From sequence record PX068455.1: a stretch of DNA of 64,000 nucleotides; one strand, given 5' to 3'. The notes below the pieces were generated by a model. That model did no database searches, had not been told where the DNA came from, and worked only from the letters and a program-made list of their open reading frames with translations. The stretch comes from a phage. The position numbers were made by a program, and so were the translations under genes. Shown one piece after another: positions 5,813-61,738 of the stretch. Positions within the stretch are counted from its first letter, which is position 1. Each line of letters opens with the position of its first letter.

Positions 5813-6091
5813 TTAGGCAATTGTCATTTTACATTCTTGAAATTTTAACACAAGACGGTGATTGTGTCTAGTGTCTAAAAAGATTTTTTCAACCATCAGG
5901 CACACGGTATAACCGTCCATCTTGTTGACAACAAAATCTCCAGGGTAAGGGAGAGTGTCCCCTGGGCTGGGAAAGCATAACCCGCTCAGAAAGGCATCAT
6001 CGGTGGTGGACTTAATGGATTTCCACACACTATCTGCCTGAACATTCTCACCAACATAATATACACTACCACATGACTTCATCATAGTCAA
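5813..6091 (-). CDS. hypothetical protein
   Basis: 92-aa ORF. Confidence 0.35.
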   Translation of the reverse strand: MTMMKSCGSVYYVGENVQADSVWKSIKSTTDDAFLSGLCFPSPGDTLPYPGDFVVNKMDGYTVCLMVEKIFLDTRHNHRLVLKFQECKMTIA

Positions 6092-6987
6092 ATCTCCGCG
6101 TAAATTAAACTGGAATCAGTATACTTCTTTAATGGGTAAATATCCTGTCCATAGATGCAATCATTAAACACCTCATCTACCCAAAGGCTACGCTTATATC
6201 CCATCATTTCTAAAACACTCATCTCTTCTTCGGTAAACTTATCACCACTCTTGCAAGATGTCAATACCTCATTTTGAACTCTTGCTACCTCGAATCGGTT
6301 ATTGGCAATATCGCTATTGGCGATCAAATACTCACCTAGAGGGTGTGCGGCATTAAAGATGCACAGTGGACGGCTGACGTAATAGTCTCCGGGTGTATAA
6401 AAATTGTTGAGGTCTTTCACTAGAACATTCTTATCAGTCACTTCATTTATAACATCATGCATATCGCACATCTTTATATGTTTGAGGATTCCATCTCCCA
6501 TCACAAAATAAAAACTTGCTGAGACACTTTCGGCATAGATCTTACTAGATCCGTTGTAGTTGTATTTTACTCGGATGCTAACGGGGGTTTTTCCTGTCGC
6601 GTTAGCCATCATCCAAAGAAATGGCAGCTCATACTTCTCCTCTGAGGAAACAAAAGGTGAGGTAGCCAGAGATCGAAAACCTCCAGAGAAGTTGAAAGTT
6701 ACAGAACCGCTCCGGCGGTATGATACCGCGTATTCTACTTTTATATCGACGTACCCATTGGAATAGGTGTGTCCTTCATTATCTAAATATGTCCACTTAT
6801 CAGACCCAGATACCAATCTACGCTCAATAACCTTCATCACTACAGGAATTAGTGGGTTGGTACAAACCGCTTTTGAAGTAGCTTTATCATCTAAAGCCTC
6901 GTAAATTGCAGAAAGGATGTCCCCAGCTGAAAGATTGGTTGTTATGTCCTGTTTCCACCGCGTACTAAAACTGTTAAGATTTGCCAT
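6088..6987 (-). CDS. hypothetical protein
   Basis: 299-aa ORF, first gene behind the divergent promoter region; GGAG RBS. Confidence 0.45.
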   Translation of the reverse strand: MANLNSFSTRWKQDITTNLSAGDILSAIYEALDDKATSKAVCTNPLIPVVMKVIERRLVSGSDKWTYLDNEGHTYSNGYVDIKVEYAVSYRRSGSVTFNFSGGFRSLATSPFVSSEEKYELPFLWMMANATGKTPVSIRVKYNYNGSSKIYAESVSASFYFVMGDGILKHIKMCDMHDVINEVTDKNVLVKDLNNFYTPGDYYVSRPLCIFNAAHPLGEYLIANSDIANNRFEVARVQNEVLTSCKSGDKFTEEEMSVLEMMGYKRSLWVDEVFNDCIYGQDIYPLKKYTDSSLIYAEI

Positions 6988-7063: not shown

Positions 7064-7609
7064 TTGATGTTGACATCTGTTGAGACAATTGATACGATTT
7101 CTTCACTTACAGAGCACGAGAGACGACGCATGAATCTTGAAAAATATTATACACCAGAAGAGTTAGAGCGCTTGCTCAAAAAATATAGACGCAAACAGAA
7201 TAACGCACGGAAACGAGATATAGAGTTCGACCTGTCATGGGAAGAATACCTCCTATTTGGTAAAAAACTTTTAGGAGATGGAGTATGCGACTATACCCTT
7301 ATACCTTTTGACATGCACACAGATGAAAACGGGCTGGGGAATCCTTTCTACCCATCTTTGGAGCGTATAGATGATGAAGGTCCTTACGCAATTGACAATT
7401 GTTGTGTGGTAGGGTTGAGGTGCAATGCTCTGAAAGACTGTCTGGTAGATAAAAAGACTGCAATCCTGATTAAAGACAAAACTGATCGAAAAATTGTCCA
7501 GCAGATGATGCTCCACCTGAGTGAAGAGCGTATGGAGAAGTTGAAAGGTGATTATACTTTTGAAGATTTCATCTTGCAATACGGGACAGAAGAAGACAGA
7601 AGAAATTGA
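7064..7609 (+). CDS. HNH-superfamily endonuclease-like protein (degenerate motif), upstream part of a split gene
   Basis: 181 aa; C-x-Y...SLERID..GPYAIDNC..C.N..K pattern typical of phage HNH modules with the His residues replaced; stops within a 10-bp tandem duplication. Confidence 0.45.
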   Translation: MMLTSVETIDTISSLTEHERRRMNLEKYYTPEELERLLKKYRRKQNNARKRDIEFDLSWEEYLLFGKKLLGDGVCDYTLIPFDMHTDENGLGNPFYPSLERIDDEGPYAIDNCCVVGLRCNALKDCLVDKKTAILIKDKTDRKIVQQMMLHLSEERMEKLKGDYTFEDFILQYGTEEDRRN

Positions 7610-7988
7610 AGAACAGACATCTGAAGAGGAAAAAGAGCCTCAGGTGGTTGAAGAGGAGATTGCAGAAGAGGTTCCTGCACTGCCTGATGATGTTGAGATT
7701 GCTAAGGCTTACACTTTCTATTGTCAAACGTTCTACGATGCAGGTATGAAAGTTGACCTGTCGTTCAGCCAATTTAAGAGTTCGTATATTCGCAAATGCT
7801 GTGCTTTAACTGGTGAACGTCTCGGAGCTGGACTTAAACCACTGTTGGTGACCGACTGGAATAAAGGTTTCACTAAAGGAAACTTTATGGTAGTATCTCC
7901 AATTATGGAGAAAGCTATGACAGATCTTATGAAGACCACCCGCATGACAATGACCGAGTTGGCAGGTATTTTCAAACACGTTAAATAA
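7548..7988 (+). CDS. second HNH-like module ORF (downstream part of split gene)
   Basis: 146 aa; acidic linker then KVDLSFSQF...C.LTGE...WNKGFTKGNFMVV resembling the module in 7064..7609; would be in frame with 7064..7609 if one 10-bp repeat copy were removed. Confidence 0.4.
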   Translation: MIILLKISSCNTGQKKTEEIEEQTSEEEKEPQVVEEEIAEEVPALPDDVEIAKAYTFYCQTFYDAGMKVDLSFSQFKSSYIRKCCALTGERLGAGLKPLLVTDWNKGFTKGNFMVVSPIMEKAMTDLMKTTRMTMTELAGIFKHVK

Positions 7989-8021
7989 TGACAGGGGCCA
8001 TTGGCCCCTTCTGGAGTTTTA

Positions 8022-9482
8022 ATGGATAGCAGAAGTTCAGAAATCATTGCCTCACAGAAAGATGATGCCCTGAGAATGTTGCAGGCTGCACGTATGTATC
8101 TCCTTGAAAAGCTGCCGTTTTATGGCACACTGCTGTCAGGATTGCAGTTCGTAGAAAACCACACATGGTGCTCCACCATGGCAACCGACCATAAACGCAT
8201 CTATTACAGCCCTGAGTTCATTATGGGATTGGCTGATGAACGCAAGGTTATTCTTAAGGCTTCTCTAACTGACGAACAGTTTGAGATGGCTGAGGTTTTC
8301 TATTCCCTCAAATCTGTGAAAGAGGTGGCTTTTCTTCTGTCACACGAGGTGGGGCATATTATCTGTGATCACCTGGTCCGTGGTAAAAGCTTCGAGCCGG
8401 AACTGTTTAATATTGCTTGTGATCATGTTATCAACACAGGTCTTGTGGTTGACTTTAGCAAGCCTCCCTGTGTTTTCTTCCCGAAGGGGAAAAGCACTAC
8501 GTTCGTGAAAGGTAAGCCTTTTGGTTTCTTAGCCAGCTGCTACTGCGACATGAGGTTTCATGGATGGATTGCTGAGAACGTCTATGCGGTTCTTGATAAG
8601 CAAAGAGATCAGAATAACGGTAAAAGTAAGAGCGGTAAAGGTGAGAACTCTCAAGGGGATAAGCGACAAACCGATGATCACATGAGTGGGAACGGTGGCA
8701 CCAGCGATGATCTTGGAAAGGCTATGGGGTATGATCAGCCACAACCTGTAATCAGCCAATCTGATAAAGATCAGGCCATGCAAGACTCTGGTGACATGCT
8801 GGAAGCAGCAATGCAAGCTTCCGGAGGTCGTTGCCCCGAGGCGGTGCGTGAGTTTGTCAAGAACAGAGGTAAGCCTGTAATCAACTATATAGACATCATT
8901 AAGCAACGCATGTTGTCTAAACGAAAGGCCGAACTGACCTACAGAAAACCTGGTCGCCGATCTGGGTCTTTGACCAGCACAATGCGAAAAGTTGGGGCTA
9001 TAAACAAGAACCAGCACGTTATTGTTCCTGGTCGTAATCCGGAAAACACCATAGATATTGTGGTAGCTTTAGACGTTTCTGGCTCGATATCTCAAAGAAC
9101 TTTAAAGAAAATGTTCAATGAAATCACCGGATTGTGCAATCTGTATAAAGAGTTTAAGGTTACAATGTTCTGTTGGTCAACTGAAGTCGGAGAGGTTAAA
9201 GTATATACTCGCGGCAACATAGACGAAATGATCAACTATGAGGTCCACTCAACATGGGGCACAACAGCTGCTTGCGTGTTCGAGTATCTGGATGCCAACA
9301 TACCAAATGCAAAAGATGTCATCGTCCTGACCGACCTATACTTTGAGCATAACTTTGAACAAAAGGCTGTTGACAACAAGTGGAAAAAGTACGATACTTT
9401 ATGGGTTCTCACCGAAGGGTATAATAAAAATTATATCCCTAGCTTTGGTAAAACTGTGGAATTAATCGAGTACGCTAAGTAA
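8022..9482 (+). CDS. metallopeptidase-like plus von Willebrand factor A (vWA) domain protein
   Basis: HExxH (SHEVGHIICDH) in N-half; vWA MIDAS motif VVALDVSGSIS in C-half; track ORF starts at TTG 8001, ATG 8022 with GGAG RBS preferred. Confidence 0.65.
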   Translation: MDSRSSEIIASQKDDALRMLQAARMYLLEKLPFYGTLLSGLQFVENHTWCSTMATDHKRIYYSPEFIMGLADERKVILKASLTDEQFEMAEVFYSLKSVKEVAFLLSHEVGHIICDHLVRGKSFEPELFNIACDHVINTGLVVDFSKPPCVFFPKGKSTTFVKGKPFGFLASCYCDMRFHGWIAENVYAVLDKQRDQNNGKSKSGKGENSQGDKRQTDDHMSGNGGTSDDLGKAMGYDQPQPVISQSDKDQAMQDSGDMLEAAMQASGGRCPEAVREFVKNRGKPVINYIDIIKQRMLSKRKAELTYRKPGRRSGSLTSTMRKVGAINKNQHVIVPGRNPENTIDIVVALDVSGSISQRTLKKMFNEITGLCNLYKEFKVTMFCWSTEVGEVKVYTRGNIDEMINYEVHSTWGTTAACVFEYLDANIPNAKDVIVLTDLYFEHNFEQKAVDNKWKKYDTLWVLTEGYNKNYIPSFGKTVELIEYAK

Positions 9483-42282: not shown

Positions 42283-42960
42283 TTAGTGCGGTCCACTTGT
42301 CTCGCCATCAGGGCAAGAGTGGGTATGACCTTTATATTCTGCATAGAATGAATCCAAATCCACACCAGCAGCAGTTATAATTCTACCAGATGGGTCTATT
42401 GTGGCACCATTCATTCTGATATTTCCATCCACAGCAGCTCGCAAATTGGCAGCCCCGTTAGTGAAAGAAAACTCCCCGCTACTGTCGCACCGTAATGTCC
42501 CACCAGGTGTTTGAAGCTCAAAATCGCCAGAAGGTGTCAGTTTAAAATAAACCCTATCATTCCATAACTCTACGTTATCAGGATCGATCTGTAAAGCGTT
42601 TGAGTCTGAATGAACAGAGGTGATTGCCCACCCTGGAAACAGGCCGTGAGTTTGTTGATCGTCGTTATTGTTTTCATTTCTCTCTGAAAACTGCAATCCT
42701 ACAACATCCCCAGCCTTAATAGGAAGTGTTAACCTTGCCTTTCCGCTGTTTGCAGACATCACCTGAATTGGAACGTCATAGATAAGAGGGTATCTCTCCA
42801 CATCCCCGTCATCAAACGTGGTTTCAGCTATTGGCTGCACGGCTGCAGAAGGTATACTGTAGTCAACACTGACAACTCTGGCCCTGATACTGGTGTGATA
42901 GTCCCTCATTATTTTTTCTATAAAGGATCTTACAGCAGCATCTTTCCTATTTATTGCCAT
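42283..42960 (-). CDS. baseplate central spike, P2 gpV-like
   Basis: 225 aa; C-terminal EYKGHTHSCPDGETSGPH matches the gpV apex HTH..P.D..G.T motif. Confidence 0.6.
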   Translation of the reverse strand: MAINRKDAAVRSFIEKIMRDYHTSIRARVVSVDYSIPSAAVQPIAETTFDDGDVERYPLIYDVPIQVMSANSGKARLTLPIKAGDVVGLQFSERNENNNDDQQTHGLFPGWAITSVHSDSNALQIDPDNVELWNDRVYFKLTPSGDFELQTPGGTLRCDSSGEFSFTNGAANLRAAVDGNIRMNGATIDPSGRIITAAGVDLDSFYAEYKGHTHSCPDGETSGPH

Positions 42961-45341: not shown

Positions 45342-47681
45342 TTACCAAAGATCTGTTGACATAAAGTTAATATCCTTGTTGTTCTCCCACTCAAGTTTTG
45401 CATCAAGTATTTTGCTAAACTCCCCCTCATCTATTGAAATCGTGATTTTACCATCACTAATCTCTAAAGGGAGCATTTCCATAGTTCTTAATTGAGAAGC
45501 AAAACCAGGGCCACCGGGCAACGGAAGAGTCCCTCCCGGTAAGGTGTCCAAAGGATCAACAAACCCGTTACCTCCAGATATGATATCTTTGCGAATCATA
45601 TCGCTGATAGTATCCAGTTGCTGATTTCTCTCACTCAGTGGGTTGAAACGGTCATTAAATAACTCCCCGGCGCTTAATATTGTACCGATAATACCAAGCT
45701 TACCAAGCAGGCCAACTTTACCACCAGGTGTCTTGAGGCCACCTCCCCCTTTTCCTGCCGCACCACCACCAGATCCTTCTGTGGTAGCTGCACCTGCACC
45801 TGCTGCTCCAGCTGCACCTCTTATAGAACTAAGGAATTTGAAGGTTTTTACAAGCATAGATGCCATGACAAAACCTTTTGTCAGGGCGTTCACTACCAGC
45901 ATAATGGCAGCAGCAAACCCTGCCCATTTAGCATAGCTAAAGGTGTCATTAAGCTCTTCAGAATATTCCTTCGTCTTAGCTGTTATGAGTCCCCATTTAA
46001 TCCCCCATTCAAGGAAAAACATGCGGATCTTGACTATGGTATTGTTTAGTTCACCAACTACCCAGTTGAGACCTCTCACAAAACCACTAACAAAATCACC
46101 AGAGGCATCCCACACAAATTGCAAAGTCTCACCAGTGCGAATCAGTGTATAATAGAACTCTGTTAGTTCATCAGCCCAACGGGTGAATAGTTTCTGACGA
46201 GACAGTTCAATGAAGGTTTTCAGTCTGTTTTCTGCCAGTACGTTAGACTTCTGCATTCTTTCATAACCAGCTGCAGATGCCTCGTTCATGTACTTAGCCA
46301 CATACTTCATGATCTTGGCTGTCTTAACCTCACCTTTCTTCATCATGTCCATGAACTGATCCATGGATAGTTCAGAAAGACCAAAAGCCTCTTTGGTGGC
46401 TTTGATAAAAGGTTCGTATGCACCAGGCAATGCTTCAGCAAGTTGTTGCTTCAGTTCTTCGGACATTACCTGTCCTTTACCGAGCATTTGCTGGATTGCC
46501 ATGATGCCACGCTGGTATTTTACCTCATCTGCACCGTAAGCAGCAGCATACTGTGAGTATGCAGAGAATAGCTCATGCACCTCTTGATTTGTCATCTGGT
46601 TTTTGGCGTTTACCGCCATCTGGGCGTAACCTTGAAGACCAGATTTGAGATCAAAACCAAGACGCATAGCCTCTTGCTGGACAAACGCAACCTCACTGTT
46701 GGCTTTGTTTGGATCTCCAGTAACAGCAGTAAGAGCAGCACTTGCCCCCTCCATCATGTGACCAGATCTGTTCACAGCAGTAAATCCAGAGAAAGCCGTA
46801 TACGCAGCTGTTGCATTAATAACAGACCTACGTAAGTCTCTCATGGCATCACCAAGTGTAAGCGTTTGGCTGGTGGCGCTTTTAAATCCAGACTGCAGAG
46901 CTGACAGGTGGGCGTTAAAGGTTGACTTTTTCATCTCTCCGCGAGCAAACCTGGACTCTAACTCTGAGTATCCTGGCAAGCTTCCACGGAATCCGGCCCC
47001 ATACTTGGCAGAAAGTCTTATCGCAGAGTTGTAGAGGTGGGTTCTCCTTGCCTCACGATCCGACATAAGCTTATTATCCATACCAGCTTTACTGTCTCTT
47101 CTTAGCTGCCTATGATAACGATTCATAGCGGCTGTCTGAGCTTTCACAAGGTTAGGGTCGGAAGCCACACCACCCATATTAGGGTTACCTGGGATATACT
47201 TGAAAGATTTGGCATTAGCCAAAACTCTTGCCTTAGGTGCCTTATAACCGCCGTAAGACACTGGTGCAGATTTGGTAGCCTTTTTGGCCTCTTTAGCTTG
47301 CTGCTGGTAGAACTTACGCATCCTAGCCATTTCTGGATTTTTAGCGGTAAGATTACCCACAGCTTGTTTACGTCTCGCGTTCTCCCTACGTTCTATTGCA
47401 GCCCTTACTGCAGCCTCTTTCTTGGCCTGTGCTACGCTCTCCCTGTGCAGTTTAGCATTTGCCTGATATTGCTGTCTGGCAACCCGCTGCATTGTTTGCT
47501 GGGTTTTAACAGCCACTGCCTGCCATCTACTCATTGGGTTGGCTGAGTTAAAATCCTCGCCCAGTTTCCTGAACTCCCTCCCAATACTGCGAATTTTCTC
47601 TACAGCTTTTTTGTAGGAGGAGTTCTCTATCTCAAAGCCAATCTTGTTGACTGTTGTGGCAACTATTTTGTTTGTAGCCAT
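45342..47681 (-). CDS. tail tape measure protein
   Basis: 779 aa, helical and Ala/Lys/Gln-rich; TMP-core-like GIMAIQQMLGKGQVMSEELKQQL; Gly-rich C-terminal region; downstream of frameshifted chaperone pair. Confidence 0.8.
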   Translation of the reverse strand: MATNKIVATTVNKIGFEIENSSYKKAVEKIRSIGREFRKLGEDFNSANPMSRWQAVAVKTQQTMQRVARQQYQANAKLHRESVAQAKKEAAVRAAIERRENARRKQAVGNLTAKNPEMARMRKFYQQQAKEAKKATKSAPVSYGGYKAPKARVLANAKSFKYIPGNPNMGGVASDPNLVKAQTAAMNRYHRQLRRDSKAGMDNKLMSDREARRTHLYNSAIRLSAKYGAGFRGSLPGYSELESRFARGEMKKSTFNAHLSALQSGFKSATSQTLTLGDAMRDLRRSVINATAAYTAFSGFTAVNRSGHMMEGASAALTAVTGDPNKANSEVAFVQQEAMRLGFDLKSGLQGYAQMAVNAKNQMTNQEVHELFSAYSQYAAAYGADEVKYQRGIMAIQQMLGKGQVMSEELKQQLAEALPGAYEPFIKATKEAFGLSELSMDQFMDMMKKGEVKTAKIMKYVAKYMNEASAAGYERMQKSNVLAENRLKTFIELSRQKLFTRWADELTEFYYTLIRTGETLQFVWDASGDFVSGFVRGLNWVVGELNNTIVKIRMFFLEWGIKWGLITAKTKEYSEELNDTFSYAKWAGFAAAIMLVVNALTKGFVMASMLVKTFKFLSSIRGAAGAAGAGAATTEGSGGGAAGKGGGGLKTPGGKVGLLGKLGIIGTILSAGELFNDRFNPLSERNQQLDTISDMIRKDIISGGNGFVDPLDTLPGGTLPLPGGPGFASQLRTMEMLPLEISDGKITISIDEGEFSKILDAKLEWENNKDINFMSTDLW

Positions 47682-52748: not shown

Positions 52749-53603
52749 TTATGCCAGTGCAGCCTCAAAATCTTTCATCATATTTTGGAAAGTTTTTGCC
52801 TTACTTAAGGTAACACCGTACTCTTTAGCAAAGGTTTGGAGTGCATCTTTTGAACCACTTTTGTCATCTTCGTTGTTAAGAGCTGCGGCTTGCTGCAGTA
52901 TGGCATCAGTATCACTGTGAGAAGATCTTGATTCTTGTGCCTGTTCAGGATCCTGCTCAGTACCTTCCGTACCTTCCGGTGCAGTCGGGCCTGGTGATTC
53001 CTCGCCGCCACCACCAGGTTCAGTAGGGCCTACAGGTGGCTCCGGCTCAGGTTCAGGCTCTGGAGCCACTGTAGAAGTTAGCCCAAGATTTACAACCTGA
53101 GAACGTTTCTTAGGCCACTCAATAGTGAAAGTTTGGGTATCTTCTTCATAAACAATGCTGCATTGCTCATCGTTTATGGTCACTTTTTTAGGCATCCCTA
53201 CAGGGTCCCACAGATGTCCCTCTGCCACGGAAACTTTGAAAGCGGCATCTACCTCTTTAAACACTGACGGAGTGAGTGTGATATTGACATCTCCGCTTTG
53301 CAGTGTTAAAGTGCTTTCATCAAGGTTCTCTGTGAAGAACAGAAGAATAACACCCATACGGATAGTTGAAATACCGGTATCAATTGGCAGGCCTGTATGT
53401 TTTGCAATCTTCTCGAAGAAGTCTACAATAGTTCTGCATGGATAGTGAACACTGCCAATAACGAATTCTGTTGGTGGCAGCAAGGCTGATAAACCAACAT
53501 TGATTTCTGGGTTATATTGTGCTAAAAATTGATAGAAACTTAACTGATTGTTGAAAACTCTTAATAGAGGATCATACTCAACTGGATATACGGCTCTCTT
53601 CAC
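52749..53603 (-). CDS. hypothetical virion protein with PEPEPEPEPP linker
   Basis: 284 aa, GTG start with GGAG RBS directly after the capsid-gene terminator. Confidence 0.4.
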   Translation of the reverse strand: MKRAVYPVEYDPLLRVFNNQLSFYQFLAQYNPEINVGLSALLPPTEFVIGSVHYPCRTIVDFFEKIAKHTGLPIDTGISTIRMGVILLFFTENLDESTLTLQSGDVNITLTPSVFKEVDAAFKVSVAEGHLWDPVGMPKKVTINDEQCSIVYEEDTQTFTIEWPKKRSQVVNLGLTSTVAPEPEPEPEPPVGPTEPGGGGEESPGPTAPEGTEGTEQDPEQAQESRSSHSDTDAILQQAAALNNEDDKSGSKDALQTFAKEYGVTLSKAKTFQNMMKDFEAALA

Positions 53604-60926: not shown

Positions 60927-61003
60927 TGGTCTCCACGGAGTGATTCGAACACTCGACCTCCTGATCCCAAATCAGGCGCTCTACCAAGCTGAGCTACGCG
61001 GAG
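60927..61003 (-). tRNA. tRNA-Pro (anticodon UGG)
   Basis: 77-nt cloverleaf read by hand: acceptor CTCCGCG/CGTGGAG, anticodon loop UUUGGGA, T-loop GTTCGAATC, CCA encoded. Confidence 0.8.
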
Positions 61004-61014
61004 TATTTATTATT

Positions 61015-61089
61015 TGGTGGCCCTGGGTGGAATTGAACCACCGTCTGGCGATTATGAGTCGCTTGCTTGAACCTTCCAGCTACAGGGCC
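61015..61089 (-). tRNA. tRNA-Met or Ile2 (anticodon CAU)
   Basis: 75 nt: acceptor GGCCCTG/CAGGGCC, anticodon loop CUCAUAA, T-arm GGTGG-TTCAATT-CCACC, CCA encoded. Confidence 0.75.
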
Positions 61090-61090
61090 A

Positions 61091-61166
61091 TGGTGCTGAT
61101 GGCAGGACTTGAACCTGCAACCTATTGATTACAAATCAATTGCACTGACAATTGTGCTACATCAGC
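61091..61166 (-). tRNA. tRNA-Thr (anticodon UGU)
   Basis: 76 nt: acceptor GCTGATG/CATCAGC, D-arm GCAC/GTGC, anticodon loop UUUGUAA, T-arm GCAGG-TTCAAGT-CCTGC. Confidence 0.8.
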
Positions 61167-61170
61167 AAAA

Positions 61171-61269
61171 GGTGCTAGGTGATGGAATCGAACCACCTAT
61201 GTATTCAACGACTACCTCGTCTATTTTCAGGATTAAAAATCCTCGCCCTTGCCAAAGGGCTTACCTAGC
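61171..61269 (-). ncRNA. atypical tRNA-like gene (about 99 nt) with non-canonical anticodon region
   Basis: Perfect acceptor GCTAGGT/ACCTAGC, canonical D-arm GCCC/GGGC and T-arm GGTGG-TTCGATT-CCATC, but anticodon arm only 15 nt and a 31-nt extra region. Confidence 0.45.
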
Positions 61270-61367
61270 GCAATATGTTGACCATGTGGCTAGTCGGCGA
61301 TGACGACTGTAACATTTGATAATCCGGTTCTGCTTCCGGCTTTCGCTTAATTACAAGGTCAACAATG

Positions 61368-61458
61368 TGGCGGAGAGTAATGGAATCGAACCATCATCGA
61401 GTTATCCTCAACGGGACGGTTTTCAAGACCGCTTGAGCACCATTGCTCCCTACCCTCC
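61368..61458 (-). tRNA. tRNA-Ser (anticodon UGA), type II
   Basis: About 91 nt: acceptor GGAGGGT/ACTCTCC, anticodon arm GCGGT-CUUGAAA-ACCGT, long variable arm, T-loop TTCGATT, CCA encoded. Confidence 0.7.
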
Positions 61459-61572
61459 TTTATAAATTACACTGATAATGACACTGATTTTCGAGCAGTT
61501 AGTGACTAGTATAAACGACGATAAATATCAATGTCATTATCTGTATGATTTATGCATTTAAAAATATAAATT

Positions 61573-61659
61573 TGGTGGGGAGTGGTGGAGTCGAACCACC
61601 CGAGTCGCAATGACAATAGATTTACAGTCTACACCGCTACCTCTACGGGATAACTCCCC
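61573..61659 (-). tRNA. tRNA-Tyr (anticodon GUA), type II
   Basis: 87 nt: acceptor GGGGAGT/ACTCCCC, anticodon arm ending ACUGUAAAUCU as in bacterial tRNA-Tyr, T-loop TTCGACT, CCA encoded. Confidence 0.75.
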
Positions 61660-61663
61660 AATT

Positions 61664-61738
61664 TGGCACCCCGTACTGGACTCGAACCAGTGTCAACGGC
61701 TTAGAAGGCCGCTGCTTTATCCACTAAGCTAACAGGGC
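61664..61738 (-). tRNA. tRNA-Arg (anticodon UCU)
   Basis: 75 nt: D-arm GCTT/AAGC, anticodon arm GCGGC-CUUCUAA-GCCGT, T-arm ACTGG-TTCGAGT-CCAGT, CCA encoded; G1-U72 wobble. Confidence 0.7.

Follow-up and report, generated by a model that had tools for sequence, protein, structure and literature searches.

A 10-bp sequence, GACAGAAGAA, stands twice in tandem where a reading frame is interrupted in the 64,000-nucleotide stretch of phage DNA analyzed here (sequence record PX068455.1; hereafter the window). Alignments with related genomes show this tandem array to be a deletion junction. The window comes from an rV5-like Vequintavirus, an E. coli myovirus that is near-clonal with Escherichia phages ECP2303 and ECP2309, and the interrupted gene is orthologous at the DNA level to rV5 ORF 11 (gp011; YP_002003513; phrog_3118), called gp11 below. 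We conclude that a known gene here carries a lesion that is ordinary and very recent, or that the way in which the breakpoint was written has produced an artefact; in neither case is it a regulatory device.

An exact tandem repeat at the point of interruption

A preliminary description of this locus had reported an exact 10-bp tandem repeat. Reading of the sequence and TRF agree with it: GACAGAAGAA lies head to tail at 7585-7594 and 7595-7604 (period 10, 2.0 copies, 100% match), and the period-10 identity is confined to these 20 nt, with zero bases of extension on either side. A frame-2 ORF on the + strand ends at TGA 7607-7609, the same stop as reported before, and frame 0 contains another ORF, 7548-7988. 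The earlier statement that taking out one copy would fuse the two ORFs holds as well, the product being a single ORF of 304 aa from TTG 7064, or of 282 aa from ATG 7130. Among exact tandem duplications with a unit of at least 10 nt, the GACAGAAGAA pair is the only one in the 64-kb window; a random sequence as long as the window is expected to contain ~0.08 of them, and none arose in 30 Markov-1 simulations. The sole other exact tandem duplication in the window consists of two copies of GTACCTTCC (unit 9 nt, 52960-52977). That repeat is not private, the window being identical there to both ECP2303 and ECP2309.

Comparison of the junction with related phages

Across the gene, the window aligns with ECP2303 without any difference except for 119 missing bp, GATAAACTAGC...AACGAGACTGT. 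Two copies of GACAGAAGAA are found in ECP2303, rV5 and 10C2, 129 bp (43 codons) apart and in the same frame, each encoding Thr-Glu-Glu, in the contexts ...QYG-TEE-DKLAL... and ...NETV-TEE-IEEQ.... What the window lacks, relative to ECP2303 and ECP2309, is exactly the 119-bp spacer between these 10-mers. The array is thus explained by loss of 119 bp between dispersed copies that were already present, and the frame is broken because 119 is not a multiple of three. Repeat copy R1 (7585-7594, + strand) is read in the native frame as the Thr-Glu-Glu of ...QYGTEE; copy R2 (7595-7604, + strand) is, in the relatives, the Thr-Glu-Glu of ...NETVTEEIEE, 129 bp 3′ of R1. The junction itself falls between 7594 and 7595, or as far along as between 7596 and 7597, a shift made possible by a 2-nt GA microhomology.

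The frame shift leads to the premature TGA at 7607-7609. The truncated ORF as written (7130-7609, + strand) encodes 159 aa, of which residues 1-155, the N-terminal Srd/HNH-like module, are identical to ECP2303 and are followed by the out-of-frame tail DRRN and the stop. The remainder of the gene (7611-7988, + strand, frame 0) comprises what is left of the acidic linker, then the C-terminal module with the native stop (7986-7988), and is out of frame with the N-module. No strong Shine-Dalgarno sequence was found at the candidate internal starts GTG 7548, TTG 7560 and GTG 7644. The preliminary description had considered a recent inactivating duplication. The gene is indeed split relative to an ancestral single ORF, and the change is recent and private, but it is a 119-bp deletion and not a duplication. 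Nor does removal of one copy restore an ancestral protein, the product being 43 aa shorter than that of any close relative.

A 1051-nt query around the site retrieved 118 phage records at 90-100% identity, except that one of the 118 fell in the 80-90% band; 118/118 records match the query in two pieces spanning ~1170 bp. A 151-nt junction probe gave 118 records; of the listed records, 59 align with it on both sides of the junction, and in 59/59 there are 119, 125 or 131 additional bp. BP9, the one other record listed, aligns with the probe on the left side alone; its gene, read separately, is intact. In ECP2303 and ECP2309, in the 118 phage records and in one phage mislabeled as a “plasmid”, the gene is one ORF of ~325 aa. 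The comparison with relatives proposed in the preliminary description therefore favors an ancestral single gene: homologs that are two separate genes with the same repeat were not found, and the tandem copy was absent from all of these records.

The complete genomes of E. coli gave no match, and the plasmid collection gave one phage-like record with an intact gene. Record CP057073.1 (PLSDB, 137,565 bp) holds an intact gene with the extra sequence (match at 45596-46315, 96% identity). It is labeled a non-mobilizable “plasmid”, comes from an E. coli assembly from cattle faeces and has the size of a phage genome, so that the culture probably carried an rV5-like phage. A separate labeling oddity concerns 16 MG0656xx records (e.g. 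MG065646.1 and MG065647.1), which are labeled “Campylobacter phage”, 15 of them listing C. jejuni as the host. Those that were listed share 96-98% identity with rV5-like phages of E. coli at the gp11 locus; the host labels look doubtful.

The exact 29-nt junction had 0 matches in IMG/VR, in GTDB genomes (one per species) and in JGI metagenomes, and a 25-mer representing the one-copy junction had 0 matches in IMG/VR. Exact look-ups among ~15 billion public proteins returned neither the truncated ORFs nor any of the four possible in-frame Δ43 proteins. Since both types of protein were absent, this look-up could not separate an artefact from a real frameshift.

Genomic context and start of gp11

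DNA identity to most close relatives is 96-100%, and the flanking genes and the promoter are also common to them. As in the rest of the family, gp11 is located between a divergent fucosyltransferase-like gene and a DUF2201/VWA metallopeptidase-like gene. The family's single uninterrupted ORF, made up of N-module, linker and C-module, is retained in all relatives but broken in the window. On sequence records, the gene goes by the names “Srd-like protein”, “anti-sigma factor”, “anti-termination protein” and, in RefSeq, “HNH endonuclease”.

A promoter scan identified a sigma-70-type early promoter on the + strand at 7070-7098 (TTGACA, 17 nt, TG-TACGAT), with 10/12 consensus matches and a TG preceding the second hexamer. 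By alignment it is rV5 promoter P11, annotated at the homologous position in the rV5 RefSeq record. The ECP records start the gene at ATG 7067, and the preliminary description had started it at TTG 7064. Because both codons overlap the promoter or lie 5′ of it, the TTG start is not supported and ATG 7130 is the likely start of the gene. Counted from there, the truncated product has 159 aa rather than 181.

Directly 3′ of the gp11 stop codon, at 7993-8009, we observed a GC-rich hairpin, AGGGGCC-AAT-GGCCCCT. It was scored by the terminator scan on the minus strand only, and may be a terminator between gp11 and the gene 3′ of it. This neighboring gene (8023-9482) is named “HNH endonuclease” in the RefSeq and ECP records. 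Its product matches the Pfam families DUF2201_N and DUF2201 (VWA-like, putative metallopeptidase) and is called a metallopeptidase in other records; the HNH name appears to be a propagated annotation error.

Distribution and age of the lesion

Over 64 kb, the window differs from ECP2309 by the gap and one SNP at 46513, and by nothing else. From ECP2303 it differs by the gap, one SNP at 42554 and one 1-nt indel near 6090. At each of the two SNPs the window has the allele common to the other sister. Carrying the shared allele at both positions, it represents a genuine third near-clonal isolate, whose only private change in the window is the deletion. The out-of-frame C-module shows no secondary decay. 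By these comparisons, the lesion is private to the isolate and very recent. An artificial edit of the ECP2309 sequence was considered and rejected, since the SNP that separates the window from ECP2309 is not the one that separates it from ECP2303, and the window has the shared allele at both.

The 1-nt indel concerns an AAA run (window ~6090-6092; ECP2303 ~37763), from which ECP2303 has lost one A that is kept in the window, ECP2309 and rV5. The missing A alters the end of the fucosyltransferase-like gene of ECP2303, which is annotated as 921 nt rather than 900 nt; a homopolymer error or a mutation private to ECP2303 is the probable cause. A literature search on ECP2303 found no paper.

Two homologs from public assemblies that looked frameshifted proved not to be comparable: one (P0035) has two 1-nt homopolymer indels, and the other (P0030) sits on a chimeric scaffold. 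They consequently provide no evidence for recurrent inactivation of the gene. The scaffold that carries P0030 (L014; ENA ERZ16268190 scaffold_2145) continues, from ~1805 to its end, with sequence unrelated to the gene, the break falling midway through the acidic linker, and looks like a chimeric metagenome scaffold.

Modules and linker of the gp11 protein

Over its full length, the intact ECP2303 protein (325 aa) is matched by phrog_3118 (E = 9e-111). The two fragments encoded in the window match the same profile, at positions 2-144 for the N fragment (E = 2.6e-55) and 163-286 for the C fragment (E = 3.1e-48). Four further profiles match the N-module: phrog_3322 “endonuclease”, phrog_1035 “endonuclease VII”, phrog_4592 “decoy of host sigma70” and phrog_1400 “Srd anti-sigma factor”. 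The intact protein scores E = 5.3e-13 against phrog_4592 and 3.6e-9 against phrog_1400; the window N fragment scores 4.2e-6 against phrog_1400, the N-terminal part alone being covered. The likeness to T4 Srd and the phrog_4592 family is remote and restricted to the N-module; the gp11 C-module is without a counterpart in those profiles. The rV5 authors made the same Srd assignment by PSI-BLAST (PMC3606486). T4 Srd binds the N-terminal catalytic half of RNase E and speeds the decay of host mRNA, according to the account of Qi et al. (2015) given in PMC4980113. The remote similarity to Srd suggests that gp11 might have a role in host takeover.

The preliminary description had assigned two degenerate HNH-like modules to the protein. 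This stands for the N-terminal module, which is HNH/Srd-like, but the C-module is not demonstrably so. The motif region of the N-module reads SLERID...DN...CN, with invariant E78-R79-I80...N90...N99, and by inspection the first-position general-base His is absent, which makes catalysis doubtful. The N-module thus differs from the HNH/beta-beta-alpha-Me nucleases (PacI, McrA, T4 endonuclease VII) both in lacking the usual general-base His and in having no match to the HNH models of Pfam and NCBIfam at E <= 1; judged by its motif, “degenerate HNH-like” seems a fair label for it. Searches of Pfam, NCBIfam and PDB sequences with the intact protein and both fragments yielded nothing meaningful. An internal duplication was not detected when the N- and C-modules were compared with each other (BLASTP E = 2.0; hhalign probability 0.3%, E = 0.2), and all that the modules have in common is a similar order of predicted secondary-structure elements.

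The acidic linker between the modules is present, as had been described, and is predicted to be disordered. In an AlphaFold model of an intact homolog, the N-module has a pLDDT of ~85-96, residues 164-222 are disordered (<50) and the C-module is moderately confident. The deleted residues, 156-195, fall mostly within the predicted disordered linker; KHISDIVNEPV, a short motif that is conserved, is lost with them. Every homolog, down to 43% identity, is a single polypeptide with N-module, variable linker and C-module, and the other family members examined consist of one polypeptide of 294-349 aa. Linker length differences among relatives are all multiples of three (+3, -12, +9 and +6 nt), and the phrog_3118 profile has only ~18 linker positions. 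Whereas rV5 gp011 is a single ORF, its counterpart in the window is broken by the 119-bp loss in this linker. The exact 10-mers are confined to the rV5/ECP2303 sublineage and are degenerate in FV3, Murica, BP9 and S127.

Origin of the junction

Among 284,430 possible deletions of 20-400 nt in the intact gene, two set two exact 10-mers side by side, and the probability that a random deletion retains both copies is ~7e-6. The microhomology at the junction as written is GA, 2 nt. A search for longer imperfect homology in the 119-nt register, by eye and by computation, found GA alone in common; neither a flanking hairpin nor a TIR occurs at the junction as written, and no inverted repeats flank the spacer. 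Since random deletion almost never yields adjacent 10-mers, and only 2 nt of microhomology are available, the repeats must be involved.

Deletions between short direct repeats are known from E. coli lacI and from the hotspots of T4 rII and T7, and 10-bp direct repeats at a spacing of 129 bp are a classic substrate for slippage. Slippage or single-strand annealing between such repeats removes the spacer together with one repeat, leaving one copy. The window resembles these cases in having a 10-bp direct repeat, 129 bp apart, that flanks the lost segment; it departs from them in that the classical product has one copy, whereas the window keeps both. An artefact or a second event therefore has to be invoked.

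The simplest and likeliest account, whose chances we judge to be about even, is that a real 129-bp repeat-mediated deletion took place and that the breakpoint homology was duplicated in the consensus or assembly. An assembly or consensus error, already named in the preliminary description, is in this sense a serious candidate. In the first step, replication slippage or single-strand annealing between R1 and R2 would have removed 129 bp in frame, shortening the flexible linker by 43 aa and leaving the protein functional. The second copy in the deposited sequence would then be the breakpoint homology written twice, and counting that homology on both sides would reproduce the order left-R-R-right exactly. 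This could come about by either of two routes. In a reference-guided consensus, split or soft-clipped reads would cover R1 and R2, so that only the 119-bp spacer would have zero coverage and hence be dropped; near-identity to ECP2303 and ECP2309, the natural mapping references, fits such an artefact. Alternatively, two unitigs, each ending in the repeat, could have been put end to end without merging of the overlap. In both cases the frameshift would not be biological, and the gene would be intact but shorter. The predicted disorder of the linker, its length variation in multiples of three and its short stretch in the profile suggest that the in-frame loss would be tolerated, although it might not be neutral, since the KHISDIVNEPV motif is lost. 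Two points weigh against an artefact. When a deletion of 129 bp is clonal, clean de novo assembly would normally yield one copy, so that a particular pipeline or a manual join must be assumed, and the one-copy allele was found neither with the 25-mer in IMG/VR nor among the ~15 billion proteins.

That the sequence is correct, and that a real out-of-frame deletion of 119 bp has left a 159-aa N-module ending in DRRN, is the main rival, which we hold only tentatively. The gene would then be dispensable in laboratory culture and the mutant fixed in the stock, with the C-module lost or made at a low level by reinitiation. This accords with the junction being present in the sequence as given, and with the lesion being the sole private change apart from the shared-allele SNP states, as expected of a single recent mutation. 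Early genes for host takeover, T4 srd among them, are not essential, which counts for the same reading. The N-module, the sole part with Srd/HNH-family matches, is fully kept, and partial function could persist. However, both routes to such an allele are costly. A single step of illegitimate recombination at the 2-nt GA microhomology, with no further homology to guide it, would have had only the ~7e-6 chance given above of landing exactly between the 10-mers. The alternative, a repeat-mediated 129-bp deletion and then a duplication of 10 bp, requires a further and highly specific event without any other change in 64 kb, and the zero flanking extension of the period-10 identity is unusual for slippage duplications. 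Moreover, the 118 relatives all keep the frame and their linker indels are all multiples of three, which points to purifying selection on the full-length protein.

Very unlikely, in our view, is a real, repeat-guided and precise removal of the spacer with both copies kept, which would split the two-module host-takeover protein into an Srd-like N-module that acts separately and a free C-module reinitiated at GTG 7644. Candidate routes would be blunt joining of ends that had been protected at the repeats, or site-specific excision of an unrecognised kind.

The preliminary description had also raised a slippage-prone switch, and the related reading of a programmed +1 ribosomal frameshift has to be weighed with it: the repeat would toggle or bypass the frame, giving N-only and N+C products. 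A +1 shift anywhere in 7548-7606 would indeed fuse both ORFs. The junction has brought AGA-AGA in front of AAT-TGA, and rare Arg codons in tandem can induce +1 shifting in E. coli. However, the phage encodes a tRNA-Arg(UCU) (61664-61738), so that AGA should not be a hungry codon, and inspection revealed neither a known slippery motif nor a stimulatory Shine-Dalgarno sequence. As for a switch, the unit of 10 nt is present in 2.0 copies only, no copy-number variants were found anywhere, and gain or loss of one unit shifts the frame by one base, which allows no simple reversible on/off. The arrangement occurs in 0/118 relatives, the copies being 129 bp apart in the close relatives examined and never tandem, and the junction is missing from the IMG/VR, GTDB-genome and JGI-metagenome scans; selection of such a site is impossible in an allele that is only a few mutations old. 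We therefore regard recoding and switching as highly improbable. At the site, no Rfam family was matched, a chance sub-threshold snoRNA hit being the only RNA element reported.

Within the tRNA cluster at 60927-61738, ARAGORN reported an odd 99-nt “tRNA-???” on the - strand (61171-61269) with a four-base anticodon, atcc, beside six normal tRNA genes (Pro, Met, Thr, Ser, Tyr and Arg-UCU). Possible identities are a pseudo-tRNA, a tRNA with an intron and a decoder of quadruplets. Because 7548-7609 contains no GGAT quadruplet, it has no bearing on the gp11 frameshift.

Loss of the spacer with both flanking repeats kept is formally the outcome of cut-and-paste excision, but the idea that the 119-bp spacer is a small mobile insertion, the 10-mers its target-site duplication and the window the empty site is scarcely credible: the spacer is in-frame coding sequence, homologous down to 43% protein identity and containing the conserved KHISDIVNEPV, it evolves by substitutions and indels in multiples of three, it has no terminal inverted repeats or end-pairing structure, its flanking 10-mers are degenerate in the four relatives named above, and no one-copy empty site was seen in any record examined or in any IMG/VR contig. 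Hairpin-mediated deletion was ruled out, as the spacer DNA has an MFE of only -8.7 kcal/mol, unpaired ends and no flanking inverted repeats.

Implications for annotation and for gp11 function

The practical value of the result lies mostly in annotation and quality control. Annotators should call neither two genes nor a “duplication-split HNH endonuclease” at this locus, which is better flagged as a frameshifted or possibly mis-assembled copy of gp11 (Srd-like). The case also illustrates a general trap, in that a perfect tandem repeat at a frameshift can signal breakpoint microhomology counted twice and not a duplication. If the lesion is real, the phage is a natural, almost isogenic mutant, one SNP away from ECP2309 in the 64 kb compared, and it could serve to study the part played in infection by the linker and the C-terminal module of gp11, an uncharacterised early protein.
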